Source: Candidatus Zixiibacteriota bacterium (GTDB lineage Bacteria; Zixibacteria; MSB-5A5; GN15; JAAZOE01). From it: a stretch of 64,000 nt of DNA. Below the pieces are notes generated by a model, which was not told the DNA's origin, searched no databases, and saw nothing but the letters and a program-made list of their open reading frames with translations. This document shows positions 6,761 to 47,734 of this stretch, one piece after another (the first letter of the stretch is position 1; each line of letters starts with the position of its first letter). Both the position numbers and the translations under genes were made by a program. The DNA is taken from the NCBI GenBank assembly GCA_030668485.1, contig DAOUTW010000006.1:6717-70716 (forward strand), read 5' to 3'.

Positions 6761-6786
6761 GAACGCAGGATTGCTCTTCATGAAAT

Positions 6787-8659: not shown

Positions 8660-8691
8660 TCTAAAGTATAAATTACCGTTTTAGATAAAAT

Positions 8692-8745
8692 GGCAGGATC
8701 CCCCTCGGAAGACTCGGGGCCTACGGCACGGATCCTGCCCTACGG
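8692..8745. repeat. Palindromic repeat, family B (copy 1)
   Basis: GGCAGGATCCccctcggaagactcggggcctacggcacGGATCCTGCCctacgg. Its reverse complement matches 20338..20390 at roughly 45 of 52 positions. Confidence 0.75.
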
Positions 8746-8761
8746 TATATGGAAAAGAATA

Positions 8762-9241
8762 TTATCGTTCCAAAAACGTCTTCACATTCGGGAGGTGGGC
8801 GCGGTAGTGTTTGTGGGTGTTATCTGCGAAAACCTGCCACGGTTGCCATTCGGACGGCATGCCGGGAAAGCGAGCCGGATCATTGAGGTCGTCGTCGGTG
8901 AGCTGTGTCATCAAGTCCATCATCTCAGCATAAACACTTTTGTAATCGGCTCGGACCTGCTCCGGATCGTTGTCTTTGTTTTCTTCGTAAATAACGGCGT
9001 TGCGTTCATGGGTCGGCAGTTGCCAGTGGTCGGAACCGACAAAGGCGTGAGCCTTGAGCAGCCCGATCATTTGCCGCTCGTACCAGGTGATATGACACAG
9101 GACATCTTTCAGCGACCATTCTCCGCAAAAACCGGGGCGGACAAAGTCGTCGCCGCCTATCCCCTCGATGACGCTGTCCCATTCCTGCCGGGCTTGTTTG
9201 ATTTCTTGGATGAATTCCGATATTTTGGCGGTTTTGTTCAT
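8762..9241 (-). CDS. DinB-superfamily-like four-helix-bundle protein (family assignment tentative)
   Basis: 159-aa ORF. WSLKDVLCHITWYE and a C-terminal HKHYRAH motif resemble DinB/DinB_2-type proteins. The antisense ORF 8690..9316 has no recognisable motifs and is rejected. Confidence 0.55.
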   Translation of the reverse strand: MNKTAKISEFIQEIKQARQEWDSVIEGIGGDDFVRPGFCGEWSLKDVLCHITWYERQMIGLLKAHAFVGSDHWQLPTHERNAVIYEENKDNDPEQVRADYKSVYAEMMDLMTQLTDDDLNDPARFPGMPSEWQPWQVFADNTHKHYRAHLPNVKTFLER

Positions 9242-9293
9242 GGGGGTAATTTACAGTATGATCGGGTTTGGAACAATGGTTTGTTGTATCAAT

Positions 9294-9333
9294 CGGCAGG
9301 TCACAATCCGCAATAGCGGATCAAGACCTGCCG
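9294..9333. repeat. 40-nt nested-hairpin repeat, family A (copy 2)
   Basis: CGGCAGGTCACAATCCGCaataGCGGATCAAGACCTGCCG, 38/40 identical to 7143..7182. Lies in the rarA upstream region. Confidence 0.85.
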
Positions 9334-27808: not shown

Positions 27809-27930
27809 ATCTGTAGGTAACAGGTCCCGGGAAGATATCACCGAGATCTGTCTTGTTACTGCAGAAATCGCGTCCCACGACGCCTCATGTTGCAACCCTC
27901 ACCGCCTGCAGCACCCTTTGGGAGGGAAAG

Positions 27931-30900
27931 ATGTCCAGATTCGGCATTGACACATGTACTATATCAAGATGCATTTTATCCCTGATAATCATAACGGCCT
28001 TTTTCGCTATCGCGGCTGATGATGGATATGCGCAGGGAATCGATTCCGGTTCGTCTCAGGATGGCGAATGGAAAGGAGTCCCCGATGATTTCCCGGTGAC
28101 CCGGTGGCCGGAAGATTCTCCTATCCGCCCGATCCGTTTTGATCAATGGAAGGCTCGGCAAGCCCCGGCAGCCCCCCTGGAAACAGAGCTGATCTCGCGC
28201 CGGAGCCCGAGTAAAAACGCAGCCGATCGAGGATTGTTCGTCATCATCGTTAATTTCGATTTGCAGACCGCCATACAAACATCACTCGATCAGTATATCG
28301 CCGATCTGATAACGGACGGTTATGAAGTCGAGCAAATCTCCGCTTCCGGTGGCACGCCGGAGGAGTTTCGCGATTTGTTGTATGACAAATATACCGAGGG
28401 TATGCAGGGTACTGTCCTGATCGGCGATCTGCCTATCGCCTGGTACGAAATCAACTGCTGGGACCCGATTGAACATGAGGAGTTCCCCTGCGATCTTTAT
28501 TATATGGATCTCGATGGCGGCTGGGGTGACAGCGATGGCGACGGGATATTCGATTCTCATTACGGCGCGGTCGACCCGGAAATCTGGGTCGGGCGGCTGA
28601 CCGCCTCGCCGATGGGCCTTAACGGCGCTGACGAAGCGACACTGGTTAATAACTATTTTCGCAAAAACCATCTTTACCGAATCGGTCAGTTACCGCTGGC
28701 CGACCGGGCGCTGTTGTACATCGATGACGATTGGCAATATGACAGCACCTGGTGGGGCGATGCCGTAGGTCTGGCATATCCCAGCCCGACGGTTATTGCC
28801 GATCCGTACGAAACGGTAGCCGAAGATTATGAAGATCATCTTGACGACAACTACGAGTTAGTCCAGGTCTGCGCGCACAGCGATCCCCATACTCATTACT
28901 TCAGTACTCCATCAGGCAGCGGCGGTACGACCAGTGTCGGCCGGATGGTAACGATTGATCCTCAGGCAGTGTTTTACAATTTGTTTGCCTGCTCCAACGC
29001 CCGCTATGTAGAAAATGACTATATGGCCGGTTGGTATATCTTCTGTCAGACCTTCGGGCTGGCTTCGGTCGGTAGCACTAAAACCGGTTCGATGCTCAAC
29101 TTCCACGATTTCTACGGTCCTTTTGCTTCCGGGCGCACTATTGGTGAGGCGTTTTTCGACTGGTTCACGGTTATTGTCTGGGATGGGATGGGTGAATCGG
29201 ATATCTGCTGGTTTTATGGCATGACCTTATGCGGCGATCCGACTCTTCTCCCCGGCCTCTCATCCAGCCCCGAATTGCTGGCCTCTGACCTCTCCGACGT
29301 GGTCGGCGATGGCGATTATGTTTTGGAACAGGGTGAGACCGTTGAGTGTCGTTTCGCATTCAAGAATATTGGCGCCGCCACTGCTTCCGATGTCGAAATC
29401 GGATTTTATATCAACGATGCCGCGATAACGATCCTCGATGATTACGCTTATATCGGCGACATCGGGCCCGGAAGCGTCGGGACCAATGATGCCAACCCTC
29501 TGATTTTTTCTATTCCGAGCGATTATACACCCCGGGTCGATTCGATTTATGTAAATCTGATTTGGAACGGGGGCCTATGCGTCGATACCATCGCCTTCGA
29601 ACAGGCGCTGGGAGGCGCTGAGATTATATTGGTCGATGACGACGACAACGATGTTATAGATCAATATTATATCCCTTTTCTCGAAAACAGCTTTATTCCC
29701 TATCATCTCTGGGATGAGGCCGATAGTTTTATTACCGCATCGGCGCTCAATGAATATGATGTTGCCGTCTGGCTGACCGGAGGTTATCGCGCCGATCTTA
29801 TCAATTCTGCGGAAATAACGGCCATGACCGGATATATGGATAATGGAGGTAACCTGTTTTTAACGGGACAGGGGATTGCCGAGCAGTTGAATGCCAGTCA
29901 GCCTGACTTCCTCGGCAATTACCTCAGGTCGGAATACTTGTCAACATCTTATCTGCCGTTGCTGATAGATATTCCGGGGGGCCAGGTTTTTGAATTCGTC
30001 GATTCTATTTGTATCACCGGAGTGGGCGGTCCGACATATCAGACCAATTGCGATCAGATCGGCGCCATCAACGGTGGCGTCGATGAAATCGAATATATGA
30101 CCGAGATAGGGTCCGGTGGGGTGTCTTATGCGGGCGCTTATAAGACGGTCTTTTTCTCTTTTGGTTTCGAATCGGCCCTGAACGGCAACAGCCGCTGGGT
30201 AGATCGCGATTCGCTCTATGGCGACATCCTCGACTTTTTTGAATACTCCCGCCCCTCCAATTATCCGGAGGTTACTACAGTGGAGATCACACCCGGCGAT
30301 CCGATGTGTATGATCGATCATACGCCGGAAATCTCCTGGACTTATTTCGATCCCGGAGCAAATCCCCAGTCGATGTATCATGTTCAGGTCGGCAGCGATG
30401 ATTTTTGGGGTACCGCCGAGATGTGGGATACCGGCCCGATATCGGGGACAGAAACGACCAGAACTTATGACGGTCTTTATCTCGAATGCGGCGAACGATA
30501 TTACTTCCGTGTCCGGGTTTTTAACGGCATCTTATGGTCTGCCTGGACCACAACTTACATTCTGATGAATGCCGTGCCGGTTCCGACCGGAATGACGCCG
30601 TGTAATATGGATGGGGTTTACGATTTCTCGCCCGATCTGACCCATGACAACATGATCGATCCTGAAGGCAGTCCGCTGGTTTATACATACGAATTATATG
30701 AAGATGCAGCGATGACAACTCTGCTGGCTCATGCCGAAGACCAGCCCGCCGGCGGCGGCGGCACTACTTCATGGCCGATTCCGATTACCTTATCGGCTGA
30801 GGAAGATTATTACTGGCGAGTACATTCGCGTGATACGATTGAGGCGGGTCGTTGGAGTGGCCTGGCTTCTTTTGTGGTATTTCCAACCGACCCGGTCGAA

Positions 30901-31113
30901 TATATCTGTGGGGACGCCAATGATGATGAGAGTGTAAATATTGGCGATGCCGTGTTTTTGATTTCGTATATCTTCAAAGGAGGCCCGCCTCCCCAGCAGA
31001 TATGTGTTGGAGATGCCAATGGTGATGGAGACCTCAATGTCGGTGATATCGTATATTTGGTGAGTTATGTATTCAATGGCGGTCCGGCTCCGGTAACTAC
31101 ATGTTGTCCATGA
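27931..31113 (+). CDS. C25 (gingipain)-like clan CD cysteine peptidase with two FN3-like X-modules and C-terminal dockerin-like module
   Basis: Start moved to the ATG at 27931 (GGAGGG RBS; signal peptide MSRFGIDTCTISRCILSLIIITAFFAIAADDGYAQ). C25-type layout: VLIGDLPIAWYE, DLYYMDLDGGW...EIWVGRL, candidate His in VCAHSDPHTHY and Cys in NLFACSNARY. Dockerin-like module at 30907..31110, ending TTCCP. Confidence 0.75.
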   Translation: MSRFGIDTCTISRCILSLIIITAFFAIAADDGYAQGIDSGSSQDGEWKGVPDDFPVTRWPEDSPIRPIRFDQWKARQAPAAPLETELISRRSPSKNAADRGLFVIIVNFDLQTAIQTSLDQYIADLITDGYEVEQISASGGTPEEFRDLLYDKYTEGMQGTVLIGDLPIAWYEINCWDPIEHEEFPCDLYYMDLDGGWGDSDGDGIFDSHYGAVDPEIWVGRLTASPMGLNGADEATLVNNYFRKNHLYRIGQLPLADRALLYIDDDWQYDSTWWGDAVGLAYPSPTVIADPYETVAEDYEDHLDDNYELVQVCAHSDPHTHYFSTPSGSGGTTSVGRMVTIDPQAVFYNLFACSNARYVENDYMAGWYIFCQTFGLASVGSTKTGSMLNFHDFYGPFASGRTIGEAFFDWFTVIVWDGMGESDICWFYGMTLCGDPTLLPGLSSSPELLASDLSDVVGDGDYVLEQGETVECRFAFKNIGAATASDVEIGFYINDAAITILDDYAYIGDIGPGSVGTNDANPLIFSIPSDYTPRVDSIYVNLIWNGGLCVDTIAFEQALGGAEIILVDDDDNDVIDQYYIPFLENSFIPYHLWDEADSFITASALNEYDVAVWLTGGYRADLINSAEITAMTGYMDNGGNLFLTGQGIAEQLNASQPDFLGNYLRSEYLSTSYLPLLIDIPGGQVFEFVDSICITGVGGPTYQTNCDQIGAINGGVDEIEYMTEIGSGGVSYAGAYKTVFFSFGFESALNGNSRWVDRDSLYGDILDFFEYSRPSNYPEVTTVEITPGDPMCMIDHTPEISWTYFDPGANPQSMYHVQVGSDDFWGTAEMWDTGPISGTETTRTYDGLYLECGERYYFRVRVFNGILWSAWTTTYILMNAVPVPTGMTPCNMDGVYDFSPDLTHDNMIDPEGSPLVYTYELYEDAAMTTLLAHAEDQPAGGGGTTSWPIPITLSAEEDYYWRVHSRDTIEAGRWSGLASFVVFPTDPVEYICGDANDDESVNIGDAVFLISYIFKGGPPPQQICVGDANGDGDLNVGDIVYLVSYVFNGGPAPVTTCCP

Positions 31114-31190: not shown

Positions 31191-34076
31191 ATGAGATGCA
31201 CAACCGGTTTGACAACGAGAGCGTTGATATTGATATCACTGATGTTTTTTACTGGCGCCGTTATGGCAATTATGCCTCCGGCTCCACCGGAATGGTATGA
31301 GCGGATCGATATGCCGATGCCTGAAAATATCAAAAACGGGGTTTATCCGAACTTTGATGTTATCGAGAAAGACCTTGCCCGGGCGGCCAAAAGGCAGCCG
31401 AACAACACTGACAACCTGCTGTTGATCCTGGTGGAATTCAGCGATAACCCGGCCGACCAGCTCAATCATCCGCCTCAGGCGTTTGACGACATGATGTTCT
31501 CTACCGGGGTCGTTCCGACCGGTTCTCTGGTCGAATATTATCAGGAAATTTCCTACGGCGCATTCACACCGGCGGGGACGGTAACGGTCTGGATCACCGC
31601 GCCGCATCCCTATACCTATTATTCCGATGGTAGCTACGGTACCGGATCGTATCCTAACAATTCCCAGGGCCTGTTGGAAGATTGCATCGAGATTCTCGAT
31701 CTGGCCATAAATTTCTCACAATTCGATAATGACGGCGACGGATATGCCGAAGGAATCTTCCTGGTCCATGCCGGGCCGGGAGCCGAGGAAACCGGTGATC
31801 CTGATGACATCTGGTCCCATGCCTGGTATTATGAAGTGGAAACCGACGACGGGACCATGACCGGCCGGTATTCCACCGAACCAGAGGAACATTATGACGG
31901 CAGCATGGTCGCGATCGGCGTTTACTGCCATGAATATGGTCATGTCCTGGGTATGCCCGATCTGTATGATACCGACGGCACGTCGGAAGGGATCGGGGTA
32001 TATTGCCTGATGGCCGGCGGTTCCTGGGGAGCCCTTCCCGGCAACCCGGAACGCCCGACTCATATGTCGGCCGAGATGAAAAGACGCCTTGGCTGGCTGA
32101 CTCCGACAACCGTATCAGGTAATCTGATCGACCTTATAATTCCGCCGGTTGCTACTATTCCGATATGTTATCAGGTTTTCAATCCATCCGATCCGGATGA
32201 GTATTTCCTGATCGAGAACCGGGGCAAGGTCGGTTTCGATTCGCTTTTCCGCGGTGACGGCGGCCTGGCGATCTGGCATGTCGACTGGGACGGCTGGCAG
32301 CAAAATGAAGCCCATCGCTACGTATCATTGGAACAGGCCGACGGCAATGGCGATCTGGAACGCGATTACGGGACCGGCAACCGTCATCCGCGCACTAATC
32401 GTGGCGATGCCGGCGATTTATATCCCGGCTCGGCCGGCAATACTTACTTCAGCTTCTCTTCCCATCCCAGCAGTTATAGCTACAATGATCCGGATGCTTT
32501 CCTGACCCTCAATGAGATCGAAATGTATGGCGATTCTGTTCGGCTCGATCTTTATGCCGCTCCGGATGTACCGATCTATCGCTTCGCTTCGCTTGAAATC
32601 AACGACACCGCCGCCGTCAGTGGTACGCCCGATTTTGATGGCGAGGCCGATTCGGATGAAATAATTGAACTGGTCGTTTCATTAGCCTGTGATGGTGAGG
32701 GCGCTTCAAGCCTTCTGGGAACGATCGTATCATCAGATTCGCGTGTTACAATACTGGACGGCTCCGGCACATTTTCTGCATCGACTCATAATGATTACAC
32801 GACCAACGCCGCCGATCCGTTCCGGGTACAGATCAACTCCGCCGGAAGCGATTCGGCGGTAACTTTCAATCTTAGCCTTGACGCCGATGGCGATGCCTGC
32901 AATCTGCAATTCAAGATGAACATCAATCGGCAGAAGATCCTGATCGTGCTTGATAATAACGGCTCGCATTGGTCAGACAATGTGGTCAAAGCCATGCACC
33001 AATCGGGTTATTCATTCGACGTTTATTCCGTCGCCGAATCCGGAACGACTCAGTATGACGATCTTATTCCATACCATGCGGTGCTGTGGACGACGGCGTC
33101 GTATTTCGGCACCCGCACCTCCAGCGGCGATTATGAATACTGCCTTACTACCGAGGAAACCGATGTCCTGTCGGATTACCTCGATAACGCCGGGCGGCTG
33201 GGACTGTTCAGCCAGGATTATATTTACGATCGTGGCGTCGATGCTTTTGCCTCTGGTTATTTGCATGCTTCCGGCGGCAGTGAGGATCAGATCGCTCAAG
33301 GCTTGACCGGCATTGCGGGAACCGTTTATGATGGTTATGTCGGCAACCTGAAAGAATGGAGTTTCTACGACTATACCGATTTTCTTTATGCTTCCGGCGG
33401 AGCCGAGGTAGTTATGGAGGAATCCTCAACCGGCGGTAATGTCATGCTCAAATATCCATCAACTCCCCAGATCGGTCTTCCTGCGACTACTTTCAGCAGT
33501 TTCAGTATTGAGCGCCTCGATGATGCTTCGCTAGGGGAATTCCTTTCGCTCTGGAGTTCATATATCCTGACCGATATTAATATCGAGGTTCCTATCCCGA
33601 CCATGCCGGCCGATAATGAAACCGTCAGTGTTGCACCGGTATTTGTCTGGACCGCATCGGGTGGTGCTGTCAGTTATAATATCCAGGTGGCAACCGACTT
33701 CGACTTCACCAATATCATCCGCGATACTTCGGTGCCGAGCAACAGCACCGCATTTGCGCAGCCGTTCGACAATGGCGAATATTTCTGGAGGGTTAACGCC
33801 TCGCCTGCCAGCAAAACCGCTTCCGCATACTCTCCGCGTTCTCGGTTTGTTATTTATGCTCCGTACATGTGCGGTGACGCTAATGACGATGATGGTGTCA
33901 ATGTCGGTGATGCCGTTTATGTCATCGCTTATGTGTTCAAGGGCGGACCGCCTCCGCCGTTTATATGTCAGGGCGACGCCAACGGCGATGGCGATGTCAA
34001 TGTCGGCGATGCCGTCTATTTGATCAGCTATGTCTTCAAGGGAGGCCCCGGACCGGTGGAACCATGCTGCCAATAA
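31191..34076 (+). CDS. M6-family (immune inhibitor A-like) metalloprotease with X-module and C-terminal dockerin-like module
   Basis: Motifs: LLLILVEFSD, GSLVEYYQEISYG, IFLVHAGPGAE, and zinc site YCHEYGHVLGMPDLYD. Dockerin-like module at 33870..34073, ending EPCCQ. Only 78 nt separate it from the upstream gene, so co-transcription is likely. Confidence 0.88.
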   Translation: MRCTTGLTTRALILISLMFFTGAVMAIMPPAPPEWYERIDMPMPENIKNGVYPNFDVIEKDLARAAKRQPNNTDNLLLILVEFSDNPADQLNHPPQAFDDMMFSTGVVPTGSLVEYYQEISYGAFTPAGTVTVWITAPHPYTYYSDGSYGTGSYPNNSQGLLEDCIEILDLAINFSQFDNDGDGYAEGIFLVHAGPGAEETGDPDDIWSHAWYYEVETDDGTMTGRYSTEPEEHYDGSMVAIGVYCHEYGHVLGMPDLYDTDGTSEGIGVYCLMAGGSWGALPGNPERPTHMSAEMKRRLGWLTPTTVSGNLIDLIIPPVATIPICYQVFNPSDPDEYFLIENRGKVGFDSLFRGDGGLAIWHVDWDGWQQNEAHRYVSLEQADGNGDLERDYGTGNRHPRTNRGDAGDLYPGSAGNTYFSFSSHPSSYSYNDPDAFLTLNEIEMYGDSVRLDLYAAPDVPIYRFASLEINDTAAVSGTPDFDGEADSDEIIELVVSLACDGEGASSLLGTIVSSDSRVTILDGSGTFSASTHNDYTTNAADPFRVQINSAGSDSAVTFNLSLDADGDACNLQFKMNINRQKILIVLDNNGSHWSDNVVKAMHQSGYSFDVYSVAESGTTQYDDLIPYHAVLWTTASYFGTRTSSGDYEYCLTTEETDVLSDYLDNAGRLGLFSQDYIYDRGVDAFASGYLHASGGSEDQIAQGLTGIAGTVYDGYVGNLKEWSFYDYTDFLYASGGAEVVMEESSTGGNVMLKYPSTPQIGLPATTFSSFSIERLDDASLGEFLSLWSSYILTDINIEVPIPTMPADNETVSVAPVFVWTASGGAVSYNIQVATDFDFTNIIRDTSVPSNSTAFAQPFDNGEYFWRVNASPASKTASAYSPRSRFVIYAPYMCGDANDDDGVNVGDAVYVIAYVFKGGPPPPFICQGDANGDGDVNVGDAVYLISYVFKGGPGPVEPCCQ

Positions 34077-34182: not shown

Positions 34183-34299
34183 GTGGTCTATTGCGGCGAT
34201 GCTAATGGCGACGGTTCGGTCAATGTCGGCGATGCCGTCTATTTGATCAACTATGTCTTCAAAGGCGGTCCGGCACCGGTGGAGCCCTGCTGTCATTAA
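34183..34299 (+). pseudogene. Orphan single-repeat dockerin fragment (gene remnant)
   Basis: The frame open from 34123 reads ...[40 protein letters not shown]. There is no ATG, no signal peptide and no catalytic body. Only TTG (34177) and GTG (34183) candidate starts exist, both poorly spaced from GGAGGG. Confidence 0.6.
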
Positions 34300-34336
34300 A
34301 AACCGCCTTGTTACAGGGCAAAGGAGGTTATCATTT

Positions 34337-35746
34337 ATGGGGGAAAAGTATAAGTCGATAATCTTCGGTGTATTTTGCATCTCTGTATTGTCATTTTTAA
34401 TGTATATGCCGATTGCGGCCCAGGATACCGTCTGGACACAAAGTTTTGGGGGTACAGTCAACGACTTCCTGTTTGCTGTCGAACCGACTTCGGATGGGGA
34501 GTTTATTTCGACAGGGGCCTACGATGATGGGCCTTCCGAAGTATACCTGGTCAAATTCGATGCTCAGGGTGATACTGCCTGGACCAAGACTATCGGTCCG
34601 GCCGGCAGAAATATCGGATTGGCGGTAAGGCAAGTTTCCGACGGCGGCTTCATTATTGCTGGTTATTATGATTACGGTGCGGCCTCGGACGGGTATTTGA
34701 TCAAAACCGACCAGGACGGGGGGGTGGAATGGGAAACGACCGCGGGGGAATATCGCACTATTCGTTTTCGTGATGTTCTCGAAACATCCGAGGGCAGTTT
34801 CATGATCGGTGGATATGCGTTTGACAACGATATGAATACCTTTGCCCGTCTGGTCCGCTATGATCGATATGGAGACATCGATATCCTGCATCAGCCTATG
34901 CCATCATACCTGACCGAATGGTACCTGCGCCGGATATACAGCATCGTGACATCTGATGACGAGGGATTTATTGTATCCGGTTTCACGACCGACATTTACG
35001 ACTTATGGGCAGTTGACTTATGGATCTCCAAAACCGATTCCAATATGAATCTTCTGTGGGAGAAAACCTATTCGCTGCCGGATATTTCCGGAAGCTGGGA
35101 TATCTCGACGACCTCCGATGGCGGTTGTATCATCGCCGGGTATAGTGGAGATATGGAATACGAACAAGAGGATTTATGGCTGGTCAAAACCGATGGAAAC
35201 GGCGACACCCTCTGGACTAATGATTTCCCAAGCCCCGGCAATGATCGCATTATGGCGGTAAAACAAACCCTTGACGGCGGCTATATCCTGGCCTGCACCA
35301 TGGGCGCGGATGACGCCCTTTATGGCGGCACCGGGTGGTTGATCAAAACCGATGCCGCAGGTGATTCTCTCTGGTCCTATAAATTCTTCCCCGAGTCTTC
35401 GGATACATCGAGCGTTTTTTACGATGTGGAGCAGATCAGCGAAACCGATTATATTGTAGTGGGAAGCGTATATCCGGGTACCATGGAAGATAGTGATGTA
35501 CTTATTACGAGAATTTCAACTGCGCCCCAGGTTTATGTTTGCGGTGACGCCAATGGCGATGGGAGTGTTAATGTCGGAGATGCGGTGTTTCTCATCAACT
35601 TTGTTTTCAGCGGCGGTCCCGCGCCCGATCCGGAATGTACCGGCGAGGCCAACGGCGATGGCACTCTCAATGTCGGCGATGCTGTCTATTTGATTAACTA
35701 TATCTTCAAAGGCGGGCCGGCTCCGGTGGAGCCCTGCTGCCGGTAG
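34337..35746 (+). CDS. Secreted repeat (beta-propeller-like) protein with C-terminal dockerin-like module
   Basis: Start moved to the ATG at 34337 (AAGGAGG RBS; signal peptide MGEKYKSIIFGVFCISVLSFLMYMPIAAQ). Repeating units are of the type SDGGFIIAGY...YLIKTDQDGGVEW, TSDGGCIIAGY...WLVKTDGNGDTLW and TLDGGYILAC...WLIKTDAAGDSLW. Dockerin-like module at 35540..35743, ending EPCCR. Confidence 0.8.
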   Translation: MGEKYKSIIFGVFCISVLSFLMYMPIAAQDTVWTQSFGGTVNDFLFAVEPTSDGEFISTGAYDDGPSEVYLVKFDAQGDTAWTKTIGPAGRNIGLAVRQVSDGGFIIAGYYDYGAASDGYLIKTDQDGGVEWETTAGEYRTIRFRDVLETSEGSFMIGGYAFDNDMNTFARLVRYDRYGDIDILHQPMPSYLTEWYLRRIYSIVTSDDEGFIVSGFTTDIYDLWAVDLWISKTDSNMNLLWEKTYSLPDISGSWDISTTSDGGCIIAGYSGDMEYEQEDLWLVKTDGNGDTLWTNDFPSPGNDRIMAVKQTLDGGYILACTMGADDALYGGTGWLIKTDAAGDSLWSYKFFPESSDTSSVFYDVEQISETDYIVVGSVYPGTMEDSDVLITRISTAPQVYVCGDANGDGSVNVGDAVFLINFVFSGGPAPDPECTGEANGDGTLNVGDAVYLINYIFKGGPAPVEPCCR

Positions 35747-39054: not shown

Positions 39055-40080
39055 ATGAAAACTTTTATCGTGGTATTTATCAACCTTGCGATTGTCTTGA
39101 TTACATTTTCGTCATTTGCCCGGGCAGCTTCGTCGACCAACCCGCAATCAACAAAGATCGCCATTAATAATTCAACGACTGTGGAAATGTTCGGCTTCGC
39201 AGACTTGCTGGCCACATTCCGGAATAAAAGCGATGGCAGTACTTTTGATATCGGCCAGGCCGAGATCGACCTCAGGTCTGACTTTACCGATCACTTCACA
39301 ATGGCATTGGCCATTGCCTACGGTGAAGGGGTATTTACCATTGGTGCATTCACCGCGGACTACACCGCATGGTCGGTTTCAGACGAAGCGTCGTCTACTC
39401 CTTTGGGAATCAAAAATATATCCATAGGCGGCGGTCAATATGATGTACGGTTTGGAATAGATTGGCATGTCTATGCCTCCATCGACCGAAAACTGGTCTC
39501 AACCCCATTGGTTGTTGAGAACACTCACAATTCATGGAACGATATGGGCGTATATGCTTCAGCCGAAGCGGCCAGGGGTAATGTTAGCATTTTTGTTGTC
39601 AATGGATTCTGCCATGAGGGAATTTATCCTGATGGCGAGGAATTCACCGCCCATAACGATTTGGCGATGGGTGGTCGCCTCGGTATGACCCCGCAGGAAT
39701 TCGTTGAGGTCGGCGGTTCAATCGCCACCATATCCGGACTGGATGATAGTCATGAAATGCTCCTTGTCGGTGCCGATTTTCGCTTTTCAATGGCGGAAGT
39801 TGAAATAAAGGGTGAATACATCACCCATAGGCTTGAATCCAAGGTTTATAGAGAATTTAGCAATGACGGTTACTATGTTCAAGCGGTATACGGAATCGGC
39901 GAATGGTACCTGGTCGGCCGATACGGTGAATTCCGCTCCGAGCAGAGGAGTACCGATCTTGCCCGATTGAGTGCTGGAATAGGTTATACATGTAACGACA
40001 GAATCGCGCTTCGATTGGAATACCAGGCAAATGATTCGATTGACGATACCGCCTTTTTTCAGGTAGCCTTTGGATTCTGA
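39055..40080 (+). CDS. Outer-membrane porin-like beta-barrel protein
   Basis: Start moved to the ATG at 39055 (signal peptide MKTFIVVFINLAIVLITFSSFARA). Amphipathic beta-strand periodicity throughout, and a C-terminal OMP beta-signal ...AFFQVAFGF. Confidence 0.7.
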   Translation: MKTFIVVFINLAIVLITFSSFARAASSTNPQSTKIAINNSTTVEMFGFADLLATFRNKSDGSTFDIGQAEIDLRSDFTDHFTMALAIAYGEGVFTIGAFTADYTAWSVSDEASSTPLGIKNISIGGGQYDVRFGIDWHVYASIDRKLVSTPLVVENTHNSWNDMGVYASAEAARGNVSIFVVNGFCHEGIYPDGEEFTAHNDLAMGGRLGMTPQEFVEVGGSIATISGLDDSHEMLLVGADFRFSMAEVEIKGEYITHRLESKVYREFSNDGYYVQAVYGIGEWYLVGRYGEFRSEQRSTDLARLSAGIGYTCNDRIALRLEYQANDSIDDTAFFQVAFGF

Positions 40081-40382
40081 AACAATAAGTCGAGCGAGGG
40101 GGATGTCACTCGATTCCACCGATTTCGCATAAGTATATGATAAACAGAATGCTATAGAGCCTCAGTGTTGGGAATATTGGATTTAATCGCCGGCGTTTAA
40201 ATGACACTTTAGTTAATAGCGGCGCCGACTGACCGTAAAAGCGATTGGCAATTTGTTGTTTTTGATTATATTATAAGTACGTCTACCATATAAGGCCTCG
40301 TATCTTTTTGCCGTTACCTTTCTTTATGACCGGGGCCGGACTACTTCAACTGCGGTTGACTTTGGCGATAAGGAGCAAAATC

Positions 40383-41612
40383 ATGAAACGGGACCGACAA
40401 TTAGTTTTCTGTTTGATAATTACGTTATCAGTAATTATCTGCCTCTTTCCCGGATTGGCGCAGGCGACATTTTCAATCGTGGCGGTCGATACCGTCACAG
40501 GAGCGGTCGGCGGAGCCGGAGCCTCATGTATTAACGACTCCTACATAATCAATGATCTGATCGAAAGCGTCGGGGCGGTGCATACTCAGGCCTGGTGGCT
40601 GCAAGCCAACAAGGACAACGCTCACGATTTACTCGCTGCCGGACTGGACCCCGATTCCATCATCGGCTGGCTGACAGCCAACGATGTTCAGGGACAGCCG
40701 GAGTTGAGGCAATACGGCGTCGTCACTCTGGCCGGTCCGGGCGCTTCGGCCGGGCATACCGGATGGGGAACCGATGCCTGGGCGGGACATATTGCCGGGC
40801 CGGGCTACGCTATTCAGGGCAATATCCTACTCGGCGAGGAAATCATCACCGATATGGAAACCGCTTTCCTCACCACCGAGGGACTGCTGGAGGACAAACT
40901 AATGGCGGCACTTCAGGCCGCCAATGTTCCCGGGGCCGATACTCGCTGCCTGCCCGATGGCAAACCGGCGCTGTCAGCCTTTATCAAAGTTCTTCGTCCC
41001 GGTGACGGCGAAACGCCCCATCTTGAGATCGTTATTGGCAGCGCCCCCGGTACTGTTAATCCGATTGATCGGGTACAACTATTTTATGATGAATGGAAGG
41101 CGACTCAGGTCGCCGACGCGGCCTTGTCGACCGCTGAGATATTCCCCACTTACTTGCCAGCTATCGGTGTCGATTCGGCCATTATCACTGTAACCCCTCT
41201 GAATTCAGATGGTATTCCGCCGACCGAAGGCGCCGAGGTTTCCTTATGGCACACAACCCCGGGAACGCTCTCGCCAGTGACCGATAACGGTGATGGAACG
41301 TTTACTGCTTATGTCTTTTCGACTGAAGCCGGCTGGGATACCATTCATCCGGCCGTCACCGCCGGAGGTGAGACGACTTATTTAAACACCCGGCCCACCA
41401 TTCAGTTCTATCTCTGTGGCGATGCCAATGCCGATCTTACAATCAATGTCGGTGACGCTGTCTTTTTGATCTCTTACGTTTTCAAAGGCGGTCCCCCTCC
41501 CTGGCCGGTTGAGGGCGGTGACGCTAATTGTGACGGAGGCACCAACGTTGGCGATGCCGTATATGTGATCTCATACGTCTTCAAAGGCGGCCCCGAACCT
41601 TGCTGCCCGTAA
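40383..41612 (+). CDS. DUF1028-family (Ntn-hydrolase-fold) protein with Ig-like module and C-terminal dockerin-like module
   Basis: Start moved to the ATG at 40383 (AAGGAG RBS). The signal peptide ends GLAQA|TFSIVAVDTVTGAVGGAGASC, which is the DUF1028 N-terminal signature. Predicted cleavage would expose Thr as residue 1. Dockerin-like module at 41415..41609, ending EPCCP. Confidence 0.75.
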   Translation: MKRDRQLVFCLIITLSVIICLFPGLAQATFSIVAVDTVTGAVGGAGASCINDSYIINDLIESVGAVHTQAWWLQANKDNAHDLLAAGLDPDSIIGWLTANDVQGQPELRQYGVVTLAGPGASAGHTGWGTDAWAGHIAGPGYAIQGNILLGEEIITDMETAFLTTEGLLEDKLMAALQAANVPGADTRCLPDGKPALSAFIKVLRPGDGETPHLEIVIGSAPGTVNPIDRVQLFYDEWKATQVADAALSTAEIFPTYLPAIGVDSAIITVTPLNSDGIPPTEGAEVSLWHTTPGTLSPVTDNGDGTFTAYVFSTEAGWDTIHPAVTAGGETTYLNTRPTIQFYLCGDANADLTINVGDAVFLISYVFKGGPPPWPVEGGDANCDGGTNVGDAVYVISYVFKGGPEPCCP

Positions 41613-41637
41613 ACCTTTTAAGAGGTGGTGAAAACGG

Positions 41638-41665
41638 TTGCAAAAATGTCGGCCCGAAGTATATT
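41638..41665 (+). promoter_or_regulatory. Sigma-70-type promoter candidate
   Basis: TTGCAA, 16-nt spacer, TATATT. Lies about 110 nt upstream of 41776. Confidence 0.35.
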
Positions 41666-41775
41666 GAAATTAACACTCCCGCTGTATTGGGGAGAGCAGT
41701 ATCCCTCACCGCCATTGAAGAATACTTGCTATATGTACACCCGGTTCTTTGCGAATTAGACATCTGGAGGTCTCG

Positions 41776-44412
41776 ATGAAACTGCTCTCTTCCTTGTTAA
41801 CAATGCTTCTTTGTATCAGTTTTTATATCACCACTGTCGGTGCCGACCAATCCCCGGTCTCCTCTTTATCGACCCTCGAAACTCCATTAAACCTCTATCG
41901 TGTCGCTGTCCAAAGTCATGAGGAAGCTGAAATTCTATCTACCTCCGGTTGCGAAGTGGTGTTAAAATCCAGCGACGGATACCTGGTGCTGGCAACCGCC
42001 GATGAGGAAAGAGATCTCTCCGCATCGGGAATGGCAGTTGAGATGATCGCGGCCGATTTGACCCGGCGGGAAATTGCGATGGATATGCGGCATGACCGGG
42101 AAAATATCGGCAGGTATGATTTACTTTTCGATGAGGGCGGAGTCCGTCTGTTCCGGGTTGACCGTGTTGAACTGGAGCAAAAAACCGGTTATGACGGTAT
42201 TGTTCCCCTTCGTGCCAGATATATTCCGATTGTCTATCGGCCGCAGCGTTCATTCACTCCCGATAAGATCTCCGATCTGGTCGACCTTGAATCTCTCGCA
42301 TCAAGTATCCTTCAGGATTCGCTGGAGTCATACTCCTACCGTTTGCAAGCCTTTAACGGGCGGGTGGCAGGATCGTCATCGATTCAATCCTGTGCCAACT
42401 GGCTGGTTTCAAAATTCGAAGACTTCGGTTACGACTCGATTGTGGTTGAAGTCTATTGGGATTCGGTTTACGATGAATGGGCCCAGATTCGAAATGTGGT
42501 CGCCTATAAAATCGGGACGCTATATCCCGATTTTCATGTTGTGGTCGGCGCTCATTATGATGCGGTTCCGGGTTCACCGGGCGCGGACGATAACGGTTCC
42601 GGCACGGCCGGAGTTCTGGAAATCGCGCGCGTACTGTCCAGTATGGAAACGAATGTCACCTATGTCTTCGCTCTCTGGGATGGTGAAGAAGAGGGGCTTT
42701 TAGGATCATGGCAATATGCCAGCCGAGCCCTGTTTGCGAATGAGCGAATTGTATCGAATGTCAATATGGACATGGTGGCTCATTACCAGAATACCGTTAA
42801 CGGAAAAGTTTACAGCAATGTCGGCGATTACAGCCAGTTGGTGATAGATCTGGCCGATTCCCTGTCGTCCATCAATCTTAATTTTTACTCAGGCGGCGCC
42901 GGCGGAACCGACTATATTCCTTTCGAGCAATCCGGTTATGATGTCGTCAACTTCCATGAGTATATTTTTTCTACGGTCTATCACTCCTACCGGGACAGTA
43001 CTTCATTTATGAATTTCGATTATATGACGCGCATGGTCAGGGCGGCAGCGGTGACCGGTTATGTTATCGGTGATAATTTCCTCCCCGATCCCGAGGTGAT
43101 CATGTTCGCACCCCATGGTATGCCACAGCTTATATGGCCGGAGATACCGGCCGAAATAGAAATCGTCATCAATGAATATGGCGGAGCCTCTATTGTGCCG
43201 GGTAGCCCCACGCTTCATTATTCCATCAATAACGGCGGATGGATAGCAGCGCCGATGACCGAATCGGACGGTGTCTATTCGGACACCCTCCCTTCGCAGG
43301 GTTGTGGTAACAAAGTTCAATACTATGTCACGGTTGAAGCTTCCGGTCTGGGAACGTCTTACTACCCCGGACCCGGTCTATCGATAACAGCCTGCGCCGC
43401 GACCGGAGTCACGACCATTTTCGAAGATGACTTCAGTTCGGATCAGGGCTGGGAGGTAAGCGGTGACGTCACCAGAGGAGAATGGGAAAGGGCTCTGGCG
43501 TCTCACAATAGCGGTGGCGGAGCGCCCCCTGCCGATTTCGATGGTAATAAGTTTTGCTACCTGACCGAAAGCAATTTTGGCGCGGATGTCGACGATGGCG
43601 CCACCAACCTGGTTTCCCCCCCCATTGACTGCTCGGGGGAAGCCATAAGCGTACGATACGCCCGCTGGTATTCCAATCATACCGGTGGAGCCCCAAACAG
43701 CGACCTGTTTGCAGTTTACGTTTCCATCGACGGTGGCAATTGGCGGGAAGTAGAAATCGTCGGTCCCATATTGCAGGCCGATGGCGGATGGTATGCTAAT
43801 GAATTCTGGATCGACGACTTCGTCGAACCTGCCGACCAGATACAATTGCGGTTTGCCGTTTCCGATAATGGCGACGATTCCCAGGTGGAGGCTGCGGTTG
43901 ATGCGATAGAGGTAATTCAATATACATTCGCCCCCCGGATTATTACCACCTCTCTTCCGGAATGGACAGCCGGTCACCTTTTTGACCAGCAACTGGAAGG
44001 GGCTTCATGCGCCGGCGAACTCACCTGGGTCGACCGTTATGGTCATCTCATCGGCTCGGGATTATCAGTTCTGCCATCCGGCCTCGTGACCGGTACTCCG
44101 CTCGAGGATGGCCTTCAGCTCTTTGTCGCGGAAGCCACCGATGAGTTGGGAGAAAGCGCTCAGAGAATGTACAGCCTCTCCATCAATCCGGCTTTGGAAG
44201 TGAGCACCGATTTACTACCCGTTGCCATGGCCGGTGTGTCATATTCATTTCAATTGGCGGCCTCCGGAGGTACCGGTGATAAATCCTGGTCTGATGCGGC
44301 CGGCGATCTGACCGGCACCGGTCTTGAAATTACCGCCAACGGTTTGTTGACCGGCGTCCCGATTGATACCGGGACGGTAAGCCTGACGGCCAGGGTAGAA
44401 GATGCGGTCTGA
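41776..44412 (+). CDS. M28-family metallopeptidase with MAM-like and He_PIG-like modules, ending at an in-frame TGA just before its dockerin
   Basis: Start moved to the ATG at 41776 (GGAGG RBS; signal peptide MKLLSSLLTMLLCISFYITTVGA). M28 metal site VVGAHYDAVPGSPGADDNGSGTAGVLEIARVL, ALWDGEEEGLLGS and NMDMV. The TGA stop is at 44410..44412. Confidence 0.88.
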   Translation: MKLLSSLLTMLLCISFYITTVGADQSPVSSLSTLETPLNLYRVAVQSHEEAEILSTSGCEVVLKSSDGYLVLATADEERDLSASGMAVEMIAADLTRREIAMDMRHDRENIGRYDLLFDEGGVRLFRVDRVELEQKTGYDGIVPLRARYIPIVYRPQRSFTPDKISDLVDLESLASSILQDSLESYSYRLQAFNGRVAGSSSIQSCANWLVSKFEDFGYDSIVVEVYWDSVYDEWAQIRNVVAYKIGTLYPDFHVVVGAHYDAVPGSPGADDNGSGTAGVLEIARVLSSMETNVTYVFALWDGEEEGLLGSWQYASRALFANERIVSNVNMDMVAHYQNTVNGKVYSNVGDYSQLVIDLADSLSSINLNFYSGGAGGTDYIPFEQSGYDVVNFHEYIFSTVYHSYRDSTSFMNFDYMTRMVRAAAVTGYVIGDNFLPDPEVIMFAPHGMPQLIWPEIPAEIEIVINEYGGASIVPGSPTLHYSINNGGWIAAPMTESDGVYSDTLPSQGCGNKVQYYVTVEASGLGTSYYPGPGLSITACAATGVTTIFEDDFSSDQGWEVSGDVTRGEWERALASHNSGGGAPPADFDGNKFCYLTESNFGADVDDGATNLVSPPIDCSGEAISVRYARWYSNHTGGAPNSDLFAVYVSIDGGNWREVEIVGPILQADGGWYANEFWIDDFVEPADQIQLRFAVSDNGDDSQVEAAVDAIEVIQYTFAPRIITTSLPEWTAGHLFDQQLEGASCAGELTWVDRYGHLIGSGLSVLPSGLVTGTPLEDGLQLFVAEATDELGESAQRMYSLSINPALEVSTDLLPVAMAGVSYSFQLAASGGTGDKSWSDAAGDLTGTGLEITANGLLTGVPIDTGTVSLTARVEDAV

Positions 44413-44667
44413 GCCATCGACGAAAAAATAGTAGTCCTGAATATTAACCTGTTTCATATCTGCGGTGATGGCAACGGCGACATCGATGTCAATGTCGGCG
44501 ATGCCGTTTTTCTGATTAATTATGTATTCAAAGGCGGGCCGGCCCCTGATCCGATCTGTGCCGGGGACGCCAACGGTGATGGCGAAGTCAATGTCGGTGA
44601 CGCCGTTTACCTGATCAACTATGTTTTCAAGGGGGGCCCGGAACCGGTAGAACCATGCTGCCCGTAA
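44413..44667 (+). other. Dockerin-coding extension in the same frame as the M28 gene, downstream of the TGA
   Basis: Frame 1 continues as [84 protein letters not shown]. This is a complete two-repeat dockerin-like module (44461..44664) with no start codon of its own. Confidence 0.8.
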
Positions 44668-44723
44668 TCAGGGAGGCCTTTGCTTTATAGCAACGCTATG
44701 TCAATCGGCAAGTGTTTCGGCAG

Positions 44724-44751
44724 TTGACAACGCCGGGAAATAACGTATTTT
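44724..44751 (+). promoter_or_regulatory. Sigma-70-type promoter candidate
   Basis: TTGACA, 16-nt spacer, TATTTT. Lies about 80 nt upstream of 44834. Confidence 0.4.
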
Positions 44752-44833
44752 GAATTAGACTGTTACGCGCCCGGTGTCGTTTGTGCGCCGGAGTTATAGA
44801 GACCAATCAATTCGCTTCATTGCGGAGGGAAAA

Positions 44834-47734
44834 ATGACGCAGCGTTCACTGTTATCCATGACACTTTTGATTATACTTGTTTTTGGCACCGCCGGAGCGG
44901 CACTAACGAACACATCCGAAAGTATAACCATCGCTATCCCGGTCGGCGAGTATTCGATCGACTCCCGGACGGACGGAAATATTGCGACGATTGAAAATTT
45001 CGGGTATCTGCTAATTCCCGGCAAGCCCAAACTGCCGTCTCGTATTTTTCCGGTGGCGTTGCCCCCCGGCGCCGAAGTCATCTCCGTCACCTATGATGTC
45101 GGAGAGGTGATTGAGCTGTCCGGAACCTACGACATTCCGCCCTCTCCTCTGCCTCGAGCGATCGGGCAGGAGGACCCGGAAGTTTATCAGCGAGACAAAT
45201 TGCAATATGATACCAATTACGAGTCCGTCTATGGCAGCAGCGATGTCTATCCGGTGCAGGCGGTGGAGTTGGTGCAGACCGGCATGTATCGTAAATATAA
45301 TCTGGTTGACATCAGGGTCACTCCCTTTGCCTATTACCCGCAGACCAGGCAGCTTGTTTACCATTCCGACATCGTCGTCACGATCAGCTATGTTATCAAT
45401 GATAAGCGTGCGGATGCCGACATCGGCGATGACAATCTCGCTTACAGCGAAAAAACCGCCGCGGAGATGATTTTGAACTACGATCAGGCATCGCAGTGGT
45501 ATTCGTCGGACGGGTTGAAACGCGGCCTGTTCAGTTTTGTCATAATCACACTGGATGCTCTGACGACGGCCGTCACGCCACTGGTCGATTGGGAAATAGT
45601 CAGAGGCCGCACGGTTCAAGTCGTGACAACGTCATGGATCAACACCAATTACACCGGCTACGATGAAGCCCAGCGGATACGCAATTTCCTCAGGGACAAA
45701 TATCCGGCCGATCAGTGGGGGATCGAGAATGTTTTGATAGTGGGCGATTACGACGATATCCCCATGCGCCAGACGGTTCAGGACTGGGGCTACGGTCCGG
45801 TCAAGACAGATTTGTATTATGCCGAGCTGTCGTATCCCGATTCCCTGTCATGGGATTCCAACGACAATTATCAATGGGGTGATGATGACGATGAGATAGA
45901 TTTTTATTCGGAAGTCAATGTCGGGCGAATCCCCTGGAGCGGCACGACCGATGTGGAAAAAATCTGCCTGAAAACGGTCGCCTATGATCAAAACGCCGAT
46001 CCGTCTTTCAAGAAAAACATGCTGCTGCTCGCCGGGTATTTCTGGAACGATGATCCCAATCCGGTCACCGACTGCGCCGTTCTTATGGAGCAGAAAGTAG
46101 ACCATCCCTGGTTTGCCGACTGGACATTTACCCGCATGTATGAGAAAAACAGCACCTGCTGGTCGGATTACGATTGCGATTATCCCCTGCTTAGCAGCAA
46201 TGTCATGGCGGTCTGGCCGAATGAGCCGTTCGCCTTTGTCAACTGGGCGGGACACGGCTCGCCGACATCGTCGCATATTTACGGCATCGGCGCTCCCGCC
46301 TTTATCAGTTCATATAATTGCCCTTCCCTCAATGACAACTATCCGGCCATTATTTTCGCCGACGCATGCAGTAATTCCGATCCGCAATATGTCAACATCG
46401 GTAAGGCGATGATCAAAGATGGCGCGGTCGGATTTCTGGGCGCAACCGAAGTGGCCGGAGGTATGCCCGGGTGGTCCGGACCGCTTGACGGTTCCAGTCA
46501 GTCACTCGATTATTTCTTCACCAAATATATTACCTCAGGCGATTACACCTTCGGTGAGGCACATCAAAAGGCCCTGCGGGAGATGTATCTGTACTCACTC
46601 TGGGGCGGCGCTGTCAAATATCAGATGTTCCAATGGGGCAATATCTGGGGTAGCCCCGGTATCATGATCAATCGTTTGACGATTGAAATCAGGGCCGAGA
46701 GCGATCTTCCGGAATATATCAATCACACCGAGCCGACGATCATTACCGTGCGTATCACCGAGGGCGCCGACACCTATCTTTCGGAATCAGGAACTATGTA
46801 TTGCTCTTTTGACGGCGGCGATTGGGAACCGGTTGCACTGACTCCCGTAGGCGGCGATCTCTTTGAGGCGGAAATCACTCCGCAGGGATGCGACATCACT
46901 CTTAATTACTATTTCGGCGCCGAGGGAAGCTTATCCGGGGCGATTACCTGTCCCTTCAACGCTCCGGCTGAGGTCTTTTCGACCCATGTGGGTATACCCA
47001 CGATAGTCATGGAAGATGATTTCGAACTGGATCAGGACTGGACAGTGAGTAACTCGCCCGGTCTCACCGACGGCGCCTGGAGTCGGGGCGTTCCCGCCGG
47101 AGGCGGTGAATACGGCGACCCGGCATCTGATTATGATCTGTCCGGGCAATGTTATTTGACCGGCAACGAATACGGCAATTCCGATATCGACGGCGGTGCA
47201 ACCTATCTGACCTCACCGTTGCTGCAGCTTCTGTACATCGATGCCGAAATTCATTATGCTCTATGGTACACCAATAACTTCGCCGAAAACCCCAACAGCG
47301 ATTATTTCATCATCCATCTGTCGGATGACGACGGTGCAAGCTGGACGCCGGTCGACAGTATCGGCCCGCATAGCCTAGCCGGCTGGAGTAAAATGTCTTT
47401 TCGGATCAGCGACTATATTATTCCGAACAACCGGGTTCGCGTTCGTTTTGAAGCCAACGATCTGGGCGATGCTTCGGTGGTTGAGGCGGCGATTGATGCT
47501 GTTTCCGTCACGTACATAGAGTGCGTGACTGTGATTTATGGCGATGTCAACAACGACGGCGATGTCAACGTGGCCGATGCCGTGTATATTATCAATTATG
47601 TGTTCAATGGTGGTCCGGCGCCGAGTATTCCCGAGGCGGCCGATGCCAATTGCGATGAGAATGTCGATGTGGCCGACGGCGTCTATCTGATCAACTATGT
47701 CTTCAAGGGCGGTCCGCCTCCCGGCTGCCTGTAA
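44834..47734 (+). CDS. C25-family (gingipain-like) cysteine peptidase with MAM-like module and C-terminal dockerin-like module
   Basis: Start moved to the ATG at 44834 (GGAGGG RBS; signal peptide MTQRSLLSMTLLIILVFGTAGA). An N-terminal propeptide-like region is followed by VLIVGDYDDIPMRQ and TDLYYAELS...VNVGRIP. Catalytic His in NWAGHGSPTSS and Cys in IIFADACSNSD. Dockerin-like module at 47537..47731, ending PPGCL. Confidence 0.88.
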   Translation: MTQRSLLSMTLLIILVFGTAGAALTNTSESITIAIPVGEYSIDSRTDGNIATIENFGYLLIPGKPKLPSRIFPVALPPGAEVISVTYDVGEVIELSGTYDIPPSPLPRAIGQEDPEVYQRDKLQYDTNYESVYGSSDVYPVQAVELVQTGMYRKYNLVDIRVTPFAYYPQTRQLVYHSDIVVTISYVINDKRADADIGDDNLAYSEKTAAEMILNYDQASQWYSSDGLKRGLFSFVIITLDALTTAVTPLVDWEIVRGRTVQVVTTSWINTNYTGYDEAQRIRNFLRDKYPADQWGIENVLIVGDYDDIPMRQTVQDWGYGPVKTDLYYAELSYPDSLSWDSNDNYQWGDDDDEIDFYSEVNVGRIPWSGTTDVEKICLKTVAYDQNADPSFKKNMLLLAGYFWNDDPNPVTDCAVLMEQKVDHPWFADWTFTRMYEKNSTCWSDYDCDYPLLSSNVMAVWPNEPFAFVNWAGHGSPTSSHIYGIGAPAFISSYNCPSLNDNYPAIIFADACSNSDPQYVNIGKAMIKDGAVGFLGATEVAGGMPGWSGPLDGSSQSLDYFFTKYITSGDYTFGEAHQKALREMYLYSLWGGAVKYQMFQWGNIWGSPGIMINRLTIEIRAESDLPEYINHTEPTIITVRITEGADTYLSESGTMYCSFDGGDWEPVALTPVGGDLFEAEITPQGCDITLNYYFGAEGSLSGAITCPFNAPAEVFSTHVGIPTIVMEDDFELDQDWTVSNSPGLTDGAWSRGVPAGGGEYGDPASDYDLSGQCYLTGNEYGNSDIDGGATYLTSPLLQLLYIDAEIHYALWYTNNFAENPNSDYFIIHLSDDDGASWTPVDSIGPHSLAGWSKMSFRISDYIIPNNRVRVRFEANDLGDASVVEAAIDAVSVTYIECVTVIYGDVNNDGDVNVADAVYIINYVFNGGPAPSIPEAADANCDENVDVADGVYLINYVFKGGPPPGCL

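Follow-up and report, generated by a model that had tools for sequence, protein, structure and literature searches.

The gene for a secreted M28 family peptidase in the DNA analyzed here (64 kb, hereafter the window) is interrupted by a single in-frame TGA in place of an invariant glycine codon, and we regard this as probably an ordinary, very recent premature stop created by a single base change, the allele being a nascent pseudogene or truncation. The TGA is found at 44410–44412 of the forward strand in the context GTC TGA G, and the frame is uninterrupted from the ATG at 41776 to this point. Frame 1 reads ...LTARVEDAV, the TGA, and then AIDEKIVVLNINLFHICGDGNGD...EPVEPCCP up to a TAA at 44665–44667, with 84 sense codons between the two stops; the figure of 85 given in an earlier note on this DNA includes the TAA. 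The TTG at 41749 had also been taken as the start of the gene, and we replace it by the ATG with its upstream GGAGG (table 1). Nowhere else in the window is a long coding open reading frame (ORF) followed, in the frame of the same gene, by at least 70 open codons split from it by one stop.

Table 1. Positions of the features of the interrupted peptidase gene within the window
Feature	Position	Strand	Basis or remark
Shine-Dalgarno-like GGAGG	41766..41770	+	5 nt 5' of the ATG; from sequence
M28 peptidase coding sequence as it ends in the assembly, 878 aa	41776..44412	+	Corresponds to P0001
Second He_PIG (putative Ig) domain, spanning the TGA	44209..44442	+	Profile match, Gly-substituted segment
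AIDEKIVVLNI codons, 3' of the stop; predicted to form the final beta-strand of the second Ig-like domain	44413..44445	+	Alignment and AlphaFold model of P0122
Two-repeat Dockerin_1, intact, 3' of the stop	44464..44625	+	Residues 18–71 of the 84-aa post-stop translation
TAA at the usual C-terminus of the family (...EPVEPCCP*)	44665..44667	+	CCP-type terminus common to homologues

Membership of a Pfam family was accepted where the score exceeded the gathering cut-off. Peptidase_M28 (PF04389) matches residues 251–433 of the 887-aa ORF (E = 9.1e-35; 120.6 bits, cut-off 21.3), and the product as truncated consists of a signal peptide, this catalytic domain, a first He_PIG repeat, and a second He_PIG repeat that is cut short; a database protein of 878 aa, P0001, is 100% identical to it. 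The 84 residues encoded after the TGA are predicted to hold a two-repeat dockerin (Dockerin_1, PF00404; E = 1.4e-10; 41.6 bits, cut-off 22.9). If glycine is substituted for the stop, He_PIG (PF05345) is matched over profile positions 8–94 of 96 (31 bits, cut-off 24), corresponding to residues 94–171 of the C-terminal segment and running across the TGA; truncation shortens the match, which then extends no further than profile position 81, the TGA falling at about position 82. For structural context we used the AlphaFold model of P0122, a 59%-identical homologue fragment (pLDDT 88.7), in which the invariant glycine, Gly201, lies in a turn between strands 188–197 and 203–213. Profile and model together place the stop site inside the second He_PIG domain, in the predicted turn before its last beta-strand. 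The earlier picture of a TGA that sets the peptidase apart from the dockerin is thus slightly misleading, as the stop falls within a domain and not between domains. Read through with glycine at the stop, the protein would have 963 aa and the arrangement M28-(He_PIG)2-dockerin. That the dockerin is intact and has no start of its own was borne out, as the Dockerin_1 match is accompanied by no ATG-, GTG-, or TTG-initiated ORF of at least 20 aa in its frame after the TGA; as no promoter-like site was found before 44724 either, separate expression of the dockerin was ruled out.

The conservation of the glycine, proposed from an internal repeat of the same protein, was confirmed for that repeat and is seen still more strongly in the homologues. 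Among 119 homologous sequences, 100 of the 106 with a residue at this column have glycine and none (0/119) has a stop; where the codon was read at the DNA level it is GGC, GGA, or GGG, never a stop. All 119 run on for about 65–105 residues past the site (about 81–84 in the close full-length ones), mostly finishing in a dockerin-type C-terminus. The stop is therefore a singleton of this one assembly, and relative to the intact full-length orthologues it is an internal one. The nearest orthologue, P0002 (locus L001), is 75% identical and has GGC at the site, and its locus is syntenic upstream, a DUF1028 gene being common to both (80% identity). Identity to this orthologue is 82% after the stop as against 74% before it, with dN/dS values of 0.084 and 0.153, respectively. 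The codons after the stop have thus not decayed, given the low dN/dS and a dockerin that scores highest among the 11 dockerins of the window, and the change is either very recent or artefactual. The comparison with orthologues that the earlier note had called for therefore returned glycine in the relatives, and the converse case that it had named, orthologues all ending here with decayed sequence downstream, was not observed.

These relatives form a known family, of which the gene is a member: the Zixibacteria (Zixiibacteriota / GN15) M28 peptidases with (He_PIG)2 and a C-terminal Dockerin_1, such as P0002–P0014, entered at NCBI as 'MAG: M28 family peptidase [candidate division Zixibacteria bacterium]'. 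Besides the identity of up to 75%, the gene resembles them in length (about 950–965 aa with the TGA read as Gly) and in the order of its domains, has the ...GGPxPCCP terminus in common with them, and likewise follows a DUF1028 gene; unlike them, only the copy studied here has a stop at the invariant glycine of the second He_PIG.

In the reading that we prefer, the substitution of one base would have turned the glycine codon into TGA in this lineage. The most economical route would be a G-to-T transversion in an ancestral GGA, as the earlier note had suggested: this origin is plausible, GGA making up 314 of the 1533 glycine codons of the window (20%) and occurring at the site in several homologues, but the nearest orthologue has GGC. 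The T at 44410 would then be truly present in the DNA of the organism, and the truncation allele would be that of the majority in the sampled population. For the fate of the truncated protein, we infer that translation under the standard code would stop at 44412 and give a secreted 878-aa M28 peptidase from which the dockerin and its linker are missing along with the final beta-strand of the second Ig-like domain; docking via the dockerin would thereby be lost. Dockerins are carried by at least ten further secreted proteins encoded in the window, most with recognizable peptidase domains, so the loss of the dockerin from one should be tolerable. A few ribosomes may read the UGA by chance, with Trp in place of Gly, which would be a basal leak and not a designed one. 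Ordinary nonsense alleles and nascent pseudogenes of bacteria and metagenome-assembled genomes (MAGs) likewise have a single-base stop, intact orthologues, and recognizable downstream sequence; unlike these, the gene studied here has no second lesion at all, which suggests that the allele is extremely young or not real. That the gene shows no further damage at all would be expected equally of an error, of a functional readthrough, and of a recent mutation.

A sequencing, assembly, or consensus error is a distinctly less probable explanation, though one that deserves some weight. According to it, the organism has GGA at 44410–44412 and makes the 963-aa dockerin-tagged peptidase, the T at 44410 possibly arising from poor coverage, from oxidation that made G read as T, or from the assembler's choice of an allele belonging to a minority strain. 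In its favor, the TGA is one base away from a common glycine codon, everything after it is perfectly intact, and the database protein is one sequence from one contig, so that the base lacks independent support. The cluster of P0001 has a single member, and an exact look-up of P0001 found nothing on record. No assembly of the same population was found in any of the collections searched (genome and metagenome contigs, and proteins): the DNA pattern with NNN at the codon had 0 matches in genome or metagenome contigs, related loci reached at best 40–46% identity in genome contigs and comprised only two weak 18-residue matches in metagenome contigs, and a protein search with the 204-aa C-terminus, aimed at short fragments, gave 59% identity at best. 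Since the base at 44410 thus has no independent copy, a consensus error would look identical to a mutation. Against an error stands the state of the assembly, which does not appear generally error-prone: the 32 other long ORFs listed for the window reach their stops, those among them that were scanned against Pfam show ordinary domain sets, and no other broken gene or frameshift was found in the 64 kb. Two overlapping ORF pairs (8690/9168 and 48862/50550) were considered as frameshifts and rejected, being unrelated genes or long spurious N-termini. By a rough estimate, real nonsense alleles also occur several times as often, for each megabase of a short-read MAG, as consensus errors that create a stop. 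A chimera produced by repeat collapse is unlikely, and misassembly through the dockerin paralogues was rejected, as the post-stop dockerin has at most 77% DNA identity to any other in the window and the TGA lies 5' of it in sequence collinear with the orthologue.

Of the three explanations first proposed, two fit all of the data, namely a recent nonsense mutation (or polymorphism) and an error in sequencing, whereas programmed readthrough does not find support. A functional readthrough of the UGA, programmed or exploited, would yield mostly the free peptidase and, in a regulated fraction, a dockerin-tethered isoform, and we consider it improbable. Still more doubtful is the specific form in which the UGA is real and has been retained in the lineage because leaky decoding supplies a mostly free M28 peptidase with a small dockerin-anchored fraction. 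The open downstream frame, the intact dockerin without a start codon of its own, and the low dN/dS relative to the orthologue would all be expected of such a gene. UGA readthrough of about 2–4%, with Trp-tRNA competing with RF2, has moreover been measured in E. coli reporters (PMC10570021), which counts in the same direction. The base following the stop is G, as compared with T or A after the six genuine TGA terminators of the window, and so the context does not seem to be selected for strong termination. The coding conservation past the stop (82% identity, dN/dS 0.084) is, however, non-discriminating, since the same would be seen after a very recent mutation, and the remaining evidence argues against two designed isoforms. 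The stop is not conserved: it occurs in 0/119 homologues and is absent from the closest orthologue. It lies within an Ig-like domain rather than at a boundary, so that the "free" form would end in a broken domain, and near-cognate decoding would insert Trp, Cys, or Arg and not restore the invariant glycine. No stimulatory 3' context or RNA structure could be recognized either: the base after the stop makes the context UGA-G, the 77 nt beginning at the stop have no greater folding propensity than when shuffled (z = −0.09), and no Rfam match or stimulatory RNA element was found downstream. No tRNA genes, including any suppressor tRNA, were found within the 64-kb window. The A1 extension of the phage Q-beta coat protein likewise has an in-frame UGA followed by an open and meaningful frame without its own start. 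To our knowledge, however, stops subject to programmed UGA readthrough are conserved among relatives and follow a protein or domain that is already complete; unlike such cases, A1 among them, the stop studied here occurs in a single sequence and falls inside a domain.

Recoding of UGA, whether as selenocysteine or genome-wide as Gly (code 25) or Trp (code 4), is effectively refuted. Genetic code 25, in which UGA is read as Gly, is that of the Gracilibacteria and Absconditabacteria, and the TGA does coincide with a glycine position, as this code would read it. GGA is, on the other hand, one of the eight sense codons one step from TGA, and the coincidence is accounted for by this single mutation. 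Unlike in genomes using code 25, UGA terminates genes here, and the G+C content is about 50%: six other genes of the window end at TGA (at least five according to the earlier note, which had rightly judged global recoding unlikely), one of them a dockerin gene at 27853..31113 that ends ...CCP-TGA exactly where its paralogues have TAA or TAG, and an in-frame TGA occurs in 0/32 other genes. A reassigned code (table 4 or 25) was rejected on these grounds. A selenoprotein was likewise rejected, as no SECIS-like hairpin was found downstream of the UGA (fold z = −0.09, no Rfam match), and the homologues have Gly and never Cys at the site.

Dockerins on secreted hydrolases outside cellulosomes are known, likewise as C-terminal type I modules with two calcium-binding repeats; the one described here is attached to a peptidase. 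No match to a cohesin family was obtained among the window proteins scanned against Pfam, and a literature search found no paper joining "Zixibacteria" and "dockerin." The finding carries little biological weight, adding one more single-base premature stop, or base-call error, to a large catalogued family. Were the retained leaky UGA true, against our expectation, it would provide a case, encoded on a bacterial chromosome, of readthrough governing the tethering of an enzyme. The value of the finding lies in annotation: the 878-aa P0001 is what truncation leaves of a 963-aa M28-(He_PIG)2-dockerin peptidase, and its entry should be marked as interrupted by an internal stop rather than be taken for a dockerin-less variant.

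The gene for the M28 peptidase starts at ATG 41776, within its longest ORF (see table), with GGAGG at 41766–41770 upstream of this codon and a signal-peptide-like MKLLSSLLTMLLCISFYITTVGA directly after it. The frame continues to TGTVSLTARVEDAV, where it meets TGA 44410–44412, and then runs on through 84 sense codons to TAA 44665–44667. Pfam recognizes Peptidase_M28 upstream of the TGA (E 9e-35) and Dockerin_1 within the 84 residues that follow it (E 1.4e-10, 41.6 bits), confirming the in-frame TGA and intact dockerin reported in the earlier note; the dockerin part also lacks its own start codon, as had been claimed, given that no ORF of at least 20 aa opened by ATG, GTG, or TTG was found in its frame 3′ of the TGA. 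A mechanical six-frame scan of the window for at least 150 open codons, one stop, and at least 70 open codons in succession returned 11 sites: 44410 is the only one inside a single real gene, another is the boundary of two adjoining transporter genes, and the other nine are all in non-coding frames.

With the Gly-substituted 963-aa protein as query, more than 400 homologues were matched, those of named source coming from Zixibacteria, Zixiibacteriota, or GN15 MAGs; the truncated product of the window itself was recovered as P0001 (878 aa, 100% identical, NCBI contig of 97,983 bp), the one member of its cluster. Among the best 119 of these homologues, which were aligned, 100 have Gly where the TGA lies, 13 are gapped at that column, and the other six carry different residues, including N, S, A, and T. 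None of the 119 ends at this column; all extend about 65–105 residues past it (about 81–84 in close full-length homologues), and most end in a dockerin-type GGPxPCCP. The closest orthologue, P0002 (964 aa, 75% identity, ENA contig L001), has GGC at the site, and its upstream neighbor is a DUF1028-dockerin gene 80% identical to the counterpart in the window. In DNA-level alignments with those homologous loci of GTDB species representatives that matched best, the codon is GGC, GGA, or GGG and in no case a stop. The TGA thus does occupy a conserved Gly position, as first read from the sequence, and the Gly of the homologues together with the sense codons in the DNA of relatives indicates that the stop is unique to this one assembly. 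On L001, a tandem M28-He_PIG-dockerin paralogue (P0021, 832 aa; 4500–6998) directly follows P0002; its slot is empty in the window (44668–44833), where the next gene encodes a C25 peptidase unrelated to the next gene on L001.

The description of the TGA as a divider of peptidase from dockerin did not hold up. When the last 245 residues, with Gly put in for the stop, were scanned, the match to He_PIG, a putative Ig-like domain, covered residues 94–171 (profile positions 8–94 of 96) and spanned the stop; without the post-stop part it stops at profile position 81. In the structure model of P0122, a homologous fragment 59% identical to the M28 C-terminal region (mean pLDDT 88.7; Ig domains >95), the invariant Gly is G201, in the turn between strand 188–197 and the final strand 203–213 of the second Ig-like domain, and the dockerin helices come after that strand. 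The profile match and the model therefore place the TGA inside the second He_PIG domain and not in a linker, and on this model the stop would remove the last beta-strand of the domain (AIDEKIVVLNI, 44413–44445), the linker, and the dockerin.

No signs of decay were seen in the post-stop codons: amino-acid identity to P0002 is 74% before and 82% after the stop, Nei-Gojobori dN/dS is 0.153 before and 0.084 after (with dS, at about 1.1–1.3, saturated), and the post-stop dockerin has the top Pfam score among the 11 dockerins of the window. Judged from these comparisons, the event at 44410 is very recent when set against the split from the closest relative known.

A frame that is open, conserved, and without its own start codon 3′ of the TGA would also suit programmed UGA readthrough at 44410–44412, as would the leakiness of bacterial UGA, which in Escherichia coli reporters is read through at about 2% at 37 °C and 4% at 25 °C, with Trp-tRNA in competition with RF2 (PMC10570021). 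A further point in favor of readthrough is the base after the internal TGA, which is G, as against T (four) or A (two) at the six genuine TGA stops; yet this non-terminator context is exactly that of a freshly mutated sense codon. Moreover, the stop is conserved in no relative and cuts the Ig-like domain at its invariant Gly; this would leave the "free" isoform with part of an Ig domain missing and put a bulky near-cognate residue at the invariant Gly of the readthrough isoform. Stimulatory RNA structure is likewise absent, the fold of the 77 nt from the stop being no better than that of shuffled sequence (z = −0.09) and Rfam giving no match in 44200–44900 even at E up to 1. We consider programmed readthrough very improbable and give readthrough that controls dockerin tethering hardly any credence.

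Selenocysteine was ruled out by the same lack of a fold and of an Rfam match and by the homologues carrying Gly rather than Cys, and a search for a suppressor tRNA found no tRNA gene within the 64-kb window. Global UGA reassignment, already thought unlikely from the sequence alone, is excluded by six window genes that terminate at TGA, including 27853..31113, which ends in TTCCP-TGA exactly where its paralogues have TAA or TAG, and by the finding of no in-frame TGA in any other window gene. In genetic code 25, UGA specifies Gly; the agreement is explained by GGA, which supplies 20% of the Gly codons in the window and is among the eight sense codons that a single base change turns into TGA. Stop usage among the 33 long ORFs of the window is TAA 16, TAG 10, and TGA 7.

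The stop could instead be a consensus error at 44410. Exact look-up of the P0001 protein found no other copy, a DNA pattern with the stop codon masked gave no matches in genome or metagenome contigs, protein-guided scans of both returned distant relatives only and no same-population copy, and a fragment-oriented protein search for the M28 C-terminus gave nothing above 59% identity. A generally poor assembly is unlikely: the other 32 long ORFs listed in the window run through to their stops, nothing unusual appears in the domain sets of those searched with Pfam, two overlapping ORF pairs were rejected as frameshifts, and a repeat-collapse chimera was ruled out, the post-stop dockerin having at most 77% DNA identity to other window dockerins. 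In short-read assemblies, genuine nonsense alleles are expected to outnumber nonsense-creating consensus errors per megabase. Because of this general expectation, we regard 44410 as probably a real nonsense allele, its base known from one assembly, and a consensus error as rather unlikely.

The window encodes a dense cluster of secreted proteins, mostly peptidases, whose very C-terminus is a type I dockerin. The 64 kb hold 11 dockerin-ending proteins (41–6676, 27853–47734, and 51514–53823), with stereotyped termini (GGPxP(VE)xCC[PQRL] or GCVE before the stop). No cohesin-family match was found among the window proteins scanned, and no paper in the library searched named both Zixibacteria and dockerin. 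Three large proteins end in KKM.L[ML]K and carry a T9SS C-terminal sorting domain; their presence together with the dockerin proteins puts two different C-terminal tags on the secreted proteins of one genome.

Proteins of the window with a C-terminal dockerin or T9SS sorting domain
Protein	Positions	Strand
Dockerin, M1 (three copies)		
Dockerin, C25-like		
Dockerin, M6	31191..34076	
Dockerin, no other recognized domain		
Dockerin, FG-GAP		
Dockerin, DUF1028		
Dockerin, M28 (studied peptidase; longest ORF)	41749..44412	+
Dockerin, C25		
Dockerin, M14		
T9SS sorting domain (Por_Secre_tail / FlgD_ig)	23675-27334	-
T9SS sorting domain (Por_Secre_tail / FlgD_ig)	48862-50580	-
T9SS sorting domain (Por_Secre_tail / FlgD_ig)	56824-60159	+

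Directly 3′ of the M6 gene, which already has its own terminal dockerin, lies an orphan, intergenic single dockerin repeat (34180–34298, frame of 34078) with stop codons upstream of it; it looks like the remnant of a 3′-end duplication. The listed ORF 34253..35746 begins within this repeat in a different frame, and the later MGEKYKSII probably marks its true start. Translations compared by eye show a common domain of about 150–200 aa in the M28 (43300–43930) and neighboring C25 (46900–47500) peptidases, with the pattern EDDF..D.GW.V......G.W.R.......DYD....CY.T......D.D.G.T.L.SP......ARWYSN......VEAA.DA..V. and no Pfam match at E below 0.01. Elsewhere, ORF 8690..9316 (208 aa, no Pfam match) overlaps the long N-terminal extension of an MgsA-type AAA+ ATPase ORF (9168–10889), which shows homology only from about residue 150 onward and whose true start is probably well downstream of 9168.

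The M28 gene falls within a known, well-populated Zixibacteria family of M28-(He_PIG)2-dockerin peptidases, and single premature stops are an already familiar type of event; no new mechanism is needed. Standard-code translation ends at 44412, and the product would be a secreted 878-aa M28 peptidase without its dockerin and without the strand that completes the second Ig-like domain; basal UGA leak, at most a few per cent, would yield full-length protein with Trp for Gly. With its dockerin lost, the truncated peptidase would no longer be held at the site where the dockerin normally holds it, a loss that may be tolerable through redundancy, since at least 10 other dockerin-tagged secreted proteins are encoded in the same 64 kb.
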